From Escherichia coli (lineage in GTDB: Bacteria > Pseudomonadota > Gammaproteobacteria > Enterobacterales > Enterobacteriaceae), in assembly GCF_045037415.1 (NCBI RefSeq), contig NZ_CP173438.1: 64,000 bases of DNA, one strand, 5' to 3'. Shown here in pieces: positions 5,718-6,062 of this stretch (its first letter is position 1; each line of letters starts with the position of its first letter). Made by a program: the position numbers and the translations under genes. The notes beneath the pieces were generated by a model, which searched no databases, was not told where the DNA came from, and saw only the letters and a list, made by a program, of their open reading frames with translations.

Positions 5718-6062
5718 TCAACGAGGTTTTCTGGCTTTTTGTCGGTCATTCAGCACCATTAGCCGGGTCTCTGCCTCTTTCTGTTCCTGTGGAGTCACTT
5801 TCCCGCACGGCTGCCCCTTCAGGTCGTAACGGGCGCCGCCAGCCATTAACGCACGGTAATAGCGCGGAGACTGCACATAAGACGCTACTGCCGCGCGTAA
5901 TGCACCCGCGCCAAACGCCAGTTCTCTGATGGCGATATCCTGTATCAGGTCGTTAGGTATCTCAACTTTAAGCGGTTGGATTTTTTCCCGGTTGAATAAC
6001 TCAGGCCAGTGTTCCACAAGACGATTAATACGCTTACGGTTTTTACGCTGGCGTTTTGTCAT
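5718..6062 (-). CDS. FinO/ProQ-family RNA-binding protein
   Basis: 114-aa ORF; LVEHWPELF...KIQPLKVEI...YYRALMAGGARYDLKGQPCGKVT resembles the recalled ProQ/FinO N-terminal domain. Confidence 0.6.
   Translation of the reverse strand: MTKRQRKNRKRINRLVEHWPELFNREKIQPLKVEIPNDLIQDIAIRELAFGAGALRAAVASYVQSPRYYRALMAGGARYDLKGQPCGKVTPQEQKEAETRLMVLNDRQKARKPR

Follow-up and report, generated by a model that had tools for sequence, protein, structure and literature searches.

The 114-amino-acid (aa) open reading frame (ORF) at positions 5718-6062 on the minus strand of the 64,000-nucleotide stretch of Escherichia coli DNA analysed here (the window) encodes a complete FinO/ProQ-type RNA-binding domain. As judged from sequence comparison with its relatives, this product is the C-terminal piece of a frameshifted gene of about 169 codons and not a native protein. 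The window copy is most likely a decaying relic of a mobile-element FinO-domain gene with little or no function in its island, a reading to which we assign a probability of roughly 0.6, because the N-terminal part has been lost, a glutamate (Glu34) has replaced a near-invariant glycine, and the class of alleles to which the copy belongs appears to evolve without constraint.

The first-pass annotation had recognized a FinO/ProQ-like protein from the letters alone and had proposed a domain search as its check, and this part of the reading held up well. The ORF, which runs from ATG to TGA, matches the Pfam profile PF04352 (ProQ/FINO) with an E-value of 9.4e-23 and 80.7 bits against a cutoff of 27, and the alignment covers profile positions 4-107 of 109, corresponding to the whole domain. 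A phmmer search of the PDB returned FinO-domain proteins only (ProQ NTD, NMB1681, FinO, RocC, and Lpp1663), with the ProQ NTD (5nb9, 4e-10) as the top match. An AlphaFold2 model calculated from a 108-sequence alignment of diverse homologues has a mean pLDDT of 94.5 and displays five helices and two strands arranged as a beta-hairpin. When this model was compared with the PDB using Foldseek, 27 FinO-domain chains were found on top, and the match to FinO (1dvo) had a TM score of 0.80 and an rmsd of 1.7 Å. The AlphaFold model of a 169-aa relative, calculated from a 14-sequence alignment, reached a pLDDT of 53 and was left out of the fold claims. The 114-aa product stops directly past the FinO domain, and contains neither a linker nor a Tudor-like C-terminal domain.

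The idea that the ORF is a stand-alone gene, on the other hand, did not survive comparison with its closest relatives, as it represents only the 3' two-thirds of a longer gene. Intact relatives are 158-190 aa in length and carry an N-terminal motif, a linker, and the FinO domain on a single polypeptide. The motif, M-x-x-LTINRKP(K/Q)GI(Y/F), is conserved among Escherichia, Salmonella, and Citrobacter relatives. The linker is variable, basic, and rich in Gln, Lys, and Thr, is disordered in the native ~160-180-aa protein, and leads into the FinO domain through a TPWRH-MTKRQRKNR junction. The TPWRHMTKRQRKNR junction and the other elements of the subfamily are all encoded in the window, but in two different frames, such that the window copy lacks the single-polypeptide arrangement seen in relatives P0011, P0046, P0120, and others. 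Protein searches returned two length classes, of 113-114 and 158-190 aa, even at 88% or higher identity to the query, and clusters of the 114-aa protein are numerous in the protein database. In related E. coli loci, intact annotated copies are 158-176 aa long, and several close copies spanning ~510-515 nt are annotated as 'frameshifted' or 'frameshifted; internal stop'. Intact long-linker forms (164-173 aa) are known solely as database proteins. When the 169-aa relative P0011 served as the query of an exhaustive search, 2090 representative clusters were found at E<=1e-3 and just 8 at E<=1e-30, which marks the subfamily as narrow and enterobacterial.

The missing N-terminal part lies immediately upstream. 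A 57-aa ORF at 6059-6232 on the minus strand, labeled by PGAP as a 'hypothetical protein' (WP_000258195.1), encodes the beginning of the gene (MVTLTINRKPQGIF...) and carries the conserved MVTLTINRKPQGI motif of the family. The gene is split into its 57-aa and 114-aa ORFs because a 5-nt duplication shifts the frame: DNA alignment revealed a tandem CTGCT-CTGCT at 6084-6093 (minus strand) with 5 nt extra as compared to insertion-free alleles. Deleting the extra 5 nt gives back ...KQSPAEKTPWRHMTKRQRK, and intact protein relatives run ...KQKPADKTPWRHMTKRQRK across the same site. The split gene spans 515 nt in the window, or 510 plus 5. The TGA that closes the 57-aa remnant and the ATG that opens the 114-aa ORF overlap in an ATGA at 6059-6062 (minus strand). 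The methionine encoded by this ATG lies inside the protein in intact relatives, most of which conserve it (RHMTKRQRK), and the TPWRH residues of the junction are still readable in the 114-aa ORF's frame immediately upstream. A sequencing error can be dismissed, since the 70-nt junction with the duplication recurs at 99% identity or more in 318 out of 5426 complete E. coli genomes. The RefSeq 'ProQ/FINO family protein' of 114 aa (WP_000166947.1) and the 57-aa 'hypothetical protein' are thus annotations of one frameshifted gene.

The family as a whole is accessory, occurring in 1093 of the 5426 complete genomes (20%) with up to nine copies per genome. All 1560 family places are chromosomal and none are on plasmids, and isolated phage genomes contain distant FinO-domain relatives only (31-41% identity). 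Loci taken from IMG/VR (74 loci) and from E. coli RefSeq place the family in two contexts, an island backbone (context A) and satellite-like elements (context B). The family alignment that yielded these 74 confirmed viral loci also matched 42 pattern stretches in a collection of genome contigs, none of which was confirmed by tblastn, possibly owing to a filtering artefact. Context A was sampled with the window and loci L001-L004, L008, and L084-L089, of which L001 and L002 differ very little from the window. Here a YagK/YfjJ-type gene, a hypothetical gene, an AlpA-like gene, and a 182-aa YagK/YfjJ-like (UCP030791) gene are followed by the convergent FinO-like gene, and the spacing of 18 nt between the stops of the last two is the same in every sampled context A allele.

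In the window, these neighbors correspond to a YagK/YfjJ or inovirus Gp2-type protein at 3209-3775 (plus strand; a PGAP name, both Pfam matches being below gathering cutoffs), an AlpA-like HTH regulator at 4666-4899 (plus strand; PF05930, 2e-10), and the convergent 182-aa protein at 5151-5699 (plus strand; UCP030791 family/YagK-YfjJ domain according to PGAP). On the other side, an ECs1377-family gene at 7114-7737 (plus strand; NF052300, 5.6e-95) is divergent from the FinO-like gene across a 0.9-kb spacer. An integrase gene at 31060-32208 (minus strand), whose product shares 64% identity with the integrase found in the satellite-like elements, adjoins tRNA-Sec (selC) at 32529-32619 (minus strand), the attachment site of the island; together with many IS remnants, these features support island status. 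The YagK/YfjJ-like and AlpA-like neighbors and the island location claimed in the first-pass annotation are therefore all present. The rest of the selC island (~12700-32600), the gene content of which was taken from the annotation of the near-identical record L002, encodes MobI(A/C), RhuM, a type I restriction-modification system, a RelB/DinJ antitoxin, the invasin Tia, a phosphoethanolamine transferase, and a TPR protein. As compared to strain 219, the window differs by a ~1.5-kb indel before selC. A gene for an H-NS-family paralogue is found at 518-958 in the window and at 5239-5673, 2723-3157, 2738-3172, and 2738-3172 in L003, L084, L085, and L089, respectively, ~0.7 kb upstream of the FinO-like gene or closer in the four loci and ~5 kb away in the window.

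Context B consists of 10-16 kb satellite-like (PICI-like) integrative elements that harbor intact relatives in the order int, HTH/AlpA, AntA/B, YlcI, Icd-like, DUF4222, primase (DUF927/DUF5906), FinO-like, and PerC. This synteny was seen in all 74 IMG/VR loci retrieved, at least 66 of which contain full-length ORFs of 165-198 aa, with three others cut by contig ends. In the annotated E. coli loci L083, L005, and L006, the perC start overlaps the stop of the FinO-like gene by 4 nt. E. coli PICIs have been described with integrase, AlpA, primase, and PerC, with no mention of a ProQ/FinO gene (PMC11773190). The window and the satellite-like elements have in common only the FinO-like gene (78% nucleotide identity), the integrase (64% aa identity), and the AlpA-like HTH. 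Rather than lying between a primase/ori region and perC, the window copy is located in an island backbone, convergent to a YagK/YfjJ-like gene.

Copies in the two contexts differ in their state. Context A includes intact short-linker alleles (L008, L086, and L088; 158-159 aa), while the identical +5 lesion with an open 114-aa ORF is found in the window, L001, L002, L084, L085, and L087. The same +5 lesion is joined by an in-domain TAA in L003 and L089, so that, among five distinct +5 allele sequences sampled, four retain an open 114-aa ORF. L004, a long-linker allele, contains a -2 deletion just before the Met and a +1 insertion in an A-run inside the domain; the -2 class comprises ~327 genomes as estimated by alignment span. 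The +5 and -2 lesion classes are independent, and both lie no more than ~30 nt ahead of the conserved internal Met (window 6063-6093), each detaching the N-terminal extension and leaving the domain ORF its ATG. The chance of two random lesions landing so close together is roughly 12%.

Selection on the domain was gauged from dN/dS calculated by the Nei-Gojobori method over its first 100 codons. Values were 0.22 for 44 unique context B sequences, 0.12 for context A versus context B, 0.43 for the intact context A alleles, and 1.23 for four split alleles, the last from 6 synonymous versus 24 non-synonymous differences summed over pairs. Because it derives from four sequences with few substitutions in a recombining family, the split-allele value is weak and suggestive only; it suggests that the split alleles are evolving without detectable constraint.

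The residues of the domain were compared with those of characterized family members. In RocC, R75 (the N-cap) and Y87 and R97 (the pocket) contact the 3' nucleotide and hairpin of the bound RNA (PMC9674577). R56, Y68, and R78 of the window protein align to these three residues, such that the N-cap Arg and the pocket Tyr and Arg are retained, and ProQ has identical residues at R58, Y70, and R80. Among 107 homologues, the pocket Tyr is present in 107 and the Arg in 106. With these RocC residues conserved, the same RNA-binding mode is expected for the intact relatives. The beta-turn differs. Its glycine is described as nearly completely conserved, stabilizing a turn that hydrogen-bonds the terminal ribose of the 3' nucleotide (PMC9674577). 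The position corresponds to Gly52 in RocC and Gly37 in ProQ, is Gly in 96 and Glu in 0 of 107 diverse homologues, and is occupied by Glu34 in the window protein, where most family members read PLKVG. The Gly-to-Glu change is shared by a subclade of the island-backbone alleles, including the intact 159-aa allele L086, and may therefore be tolerated. The window lineage also has N37 where the other 13 aligned family members all have Asp, and K88 in place of the consensus Glu.

By homology to RocC, FinO, and ProQ, the native ~160-180-aa protein would use its Tyr/Arg pocket and N-cap Arg to clamp an RNA 3' end consisting of a terminator hairpin and a single-stranded tail. An element-encoded regulatory or antisense RNA held in this manner would be stabilized or helped to pair; we infer this stabilizing or pairing role for the intact members by analogy. 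The copy in the YfjJ/AlpA backbone of the eroded selC island would then have undergone the 5-nt tandem duplication, which left the 114-aa domain ORF open and possibly translated by reinitiation at the ATGA overlap.

This last point is the basis of the most serious alternative, in which the split allele is functional. A 57-aa leader ORF preceded by a GAGG Shine-Dalgarno would be translated, ribosomes would reinitiate at the ATG, and the product would be a minimal FinO-domain protein comparable to NMB1681 and Lpp1663, with terminator hairpins on island or core RNAs as its ligands. An ATGA stop/start overlap is a classic arrangement for translational coupling, and the 114-aa ORF holds the whole domain, starting from a Met that most intact relatives conserve, with a complete fold, a high-confidence model, and an intact Tyr/Arg pocket and N-cap Arg. 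The allele is also widespread (318 genomes), its ORF is open in most sampled copies, and the independent -2 class cuts just upstream of the same Met. Weighing against it are the dN/dS of ~1.2 and the stop found in some alleles with the same lesion, the Glu at the near-invariant beta-turn Gly, the want of a good Shine-Dalgarno directly ahead of the ATG, and the loss of the conserved N-terminal motif, which by analogy with the N-terminal region of FinO could carry chaperone activity. In addition, Rfam searches and fold z-scores yielded no candidate ligand RNA nearby. On balance, a functional split product is considerably less likely than a relic. A route by which the full-length protein might still be made, through -1 ribosomal frameshifting on G AAA AAA C (6076-6083), is highly improbable. 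The 114-aa ORF's frame is open from 6101 to the ATG, the A-run lies immediately downstream of the duplication, and a slip there would give ...LLKK(K)TPWRHMTKRQRK, with the conserved junction restored. However, the heptamer departs from the canonical X XXY YYZ pattern of slippery sites, neither a stimulatory hairpin nor an upstream Shine-Dalgarno is seen, and the A-run appears to be ancestral (P0036 reads SAEKTPWRH) instead of compensating. The signs of decay noted for the split allele (dN/dS of ~1.2, stop alleles, and Glu34) apply here as well.

Least probable of all is the original proposal of a native 114-aa FinO-like chaperone serving small or antisense RNAs from the 6.1-7.0 kb flank. In its favor are a genuine FinO domain and one weak terminator-like hairpin at 6316-6332 (minus strand), but native relatives are 158-190 aa long and the flank is made up of other things. 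Positions 6059-7113 consist of the N-terminal remnant, an upstream block, an Rpn remnant, and the upstream region of the ECs1377-family gene; the flank had been described as lacking convincing ORFs, and the stretch at 6059-6232 is in fact the gene's own N-terminal part. The upstream block (6233-6505, minus strand), presumed to hold the promoter and 5' UTR, is common to most sampled context A alleles, with L087 diverging there and some alleles carrying an extra insertion of ~200 nt. The weak hairpin is located in this block of related alleles and is disrupted in the intact allele L008. Positions 6747-6948 (plus strand), part of the spacer that separates the FinO-like gene from the ECs1377-family gene, hold the remnant of an Rpn-family recombination-promoting nuclease gene. 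Rpn genes of many chromosomes and plasmids match this remnant at 75-78% identity, and in the homologous locus L008 it is annotated as an incomplete Rpn pseudogene. A search for small RNAs in this flank had been proposed. At the gathering threshold, Rfam identified only tRNA-Sec in the whole window, with no match to FinP or to int-alpA RNA (RF02996), and an E-value search of 2000-8200 gave no credible match. A eukaryotic snoRNA model hit at 3271-3301 was rejected, scoring 17 bits against a cutoff of 75. Ten overlapping 140-nt windows covering 6.2-7.1 kb on both strands had folding z-scores of -1.5 to +0.4 as compared to dinucleotide shuffles, so no excess folding was observed.

The first-pass annotation was therefore sound with respect to the family and the neighborhood, and it fell short on the native status of the 114-aa protein and on a small RNA partner within the island. 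The post-transcriptional control that it implied for the island is doubtful as an active role of the window copy, given a dN/dS near 1, nonsense alleles elsewhere, and Glu at a near-invariant Gly. For this island, the result speaks against the FinO ORF as an active post-transcriptional regulator.

The family-level lead, a satellite FinO-like protein with candidate partner RNAs, is worth more than the window copy itself. In the satellite-like elements, the gene comes after the primase and an ori-like, AT-rich spacer with repeats, and it is coupled to perC. This placement suggests that it takes part in the replication or the regulatory circuit of the satellite, as FopA and PcnR do on plasmids. 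In L083 (NZ_CP027394.1, E. coli O104:H4), the spacer between the DUF927 primase and the FinO-like gene (10387-10497) is AT-rich, contains repeated and inverted GGGATAT/CCGGGATAT units, and looks origin-like. FopA and PcnR are plasmid FinO-like copy-number regulators that aid an antisense RNA acting on their own replication (PMC9977716). They share with the family under study a mobile-element origin, and the position of the intact relatives after a primase and ori-like region points to a similar role; they differ in being plasmid-borne, and the likeness is drawn from their published descriptions.

Two RNAs of the satellite-like elements may be partners of the intact proteins. One is a ~77-nt candidate beside antA/B (L083 ~5634-5711, minus strand), with a TTCACT-17-TATAAT promoter and an 11-bp GC-rich terminator followed by a U tail. 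It was found as 15 variants in 37 of the 74 loci, in which the terminator hairpin is invariant and the promoter hexamers nearly so, whereas the body is variable with indels and has a fold z-score of -2.2. The candidate matches no Rfam family and occurs in 392 E. coli genomes, with no PGAP annotation at that place in the genomes listed. The other is the int-alpA RNA (RF02996) at 3467-3534 (plus strand) of L083, just downstream of the integrase gene, which scores 44.2 bits against a gathering score of 35.8. An immunity RNA of the P1 c4 or P4 CI type beside the Icd-like gene was also considered and was negative by Rfam in L005-L007 and in the whole of L083, and no antisense RNA to the satellite replication genes was identified. 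Conservation of the antA/B-ylcI region was likewise set aside as a sign of an RNA. A 522-codon open frame on the plus strand of L083 (5612-7180) runs from the antA/B stop, through ylcI in antisense, into the Icd-like gene, with only its last ~65 codons matching any protein family. The part over 5588-6100 is open in all 30 sequence variants, and conservation here therefore cannot by itself be read as RNA, leaving only the 77-nt candidate as a lead from this region. Overall, it is conceivable, at odds clearly short of even, that the window holds a relic of an unstudied satellite FinO subfamily whose intact proteins chaperone satellite antisense or small RNAs. As a further possibility, the widespread split allele may still provide a FinO domain in free form, which would compete with ProQ for binding to terminator hairpins.

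Comparison with known FinO-domain systems sets the family apart from each of them. FinO of F-like plasmids (1dvo) is the best Foldseek match and has the same fold, mobile-element origin, Tyr/Arg pocket, and, as in the native form of the window family, an N-terminal extension before the domain. In contrast, the window ORF reaches 53.9 bits with the FinO model (NCBIfam NF010317), for which the cutoff is 136 bits, and has 28% identity, the family is strictly chromosomal, and Rfam detected no FinP-like RNA. The extension also differs, consisting of the LTINRKP motif and a Gln/Lys/Thr-rich linker, and is cut off in the window. The ProQ NTD of the E. coli core chromosome is the best sequence match among solved structures, but the window ORF reaches 49.4 bits against the 127-bit cutoff of the equivalog model (NCBIfam NF003434), its Glu34 replaces ProQ G37, and ProQ is a core gene product with a linker and a Tudor-like domain, while the window family is accessory and the window protein has neither. 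RocC of Legionella, solved with the RocR terminator (7rgu), has the same fold (TM ~0.77) but carries Gly52 in place of the Glu, a C-terminal extension, and a known partner, RocR. NMB1681 of Neisseria and Lpp1663 of Legionella resemble the 114-aa ORF in size and in consisting of a lone FinO domain, an architecture that is native in those proteins and a frameshift product in the window. By NCBIfam, then, the window protein is neither FinO nor ProQ, and the satellite and island FinO-like proteins constitute an uncharacterized subfamily. A review of the FinO family assigns members from chromosomes, plasmids, and phages to an 'eclectic' branch, with integrated copies eroding, and does not describe the lineage analyzed here; a survey of STEC islands merely lists a 'ProQ/FINO family protein' among selC and pheV island genes. 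A literature search turned up no publication about a FinO-like protein carried by an island or a satellite in E. coli.

The usual picture of E. coli is one chromosomal FinO-domain protein, ProQ, plus the plasmid proteins FinO and FopA. The family analyzed here adds a third FinO-domain lineage, carried on the chromosome by about one-fifth of complete genomes. Its copies are intact in the satellite-like elements, and most of those in tRNA-associated island backbones are broken. If its intact members do chaperone satellite RNAs, there would be an RNA-chaperone-dependent layer of control in phage satellites analogous to plasmid FinO/FinP, and, should they work like FinO or FopA, they would represent the first RNA-chaperone module of phage satellites in the searchable literature.
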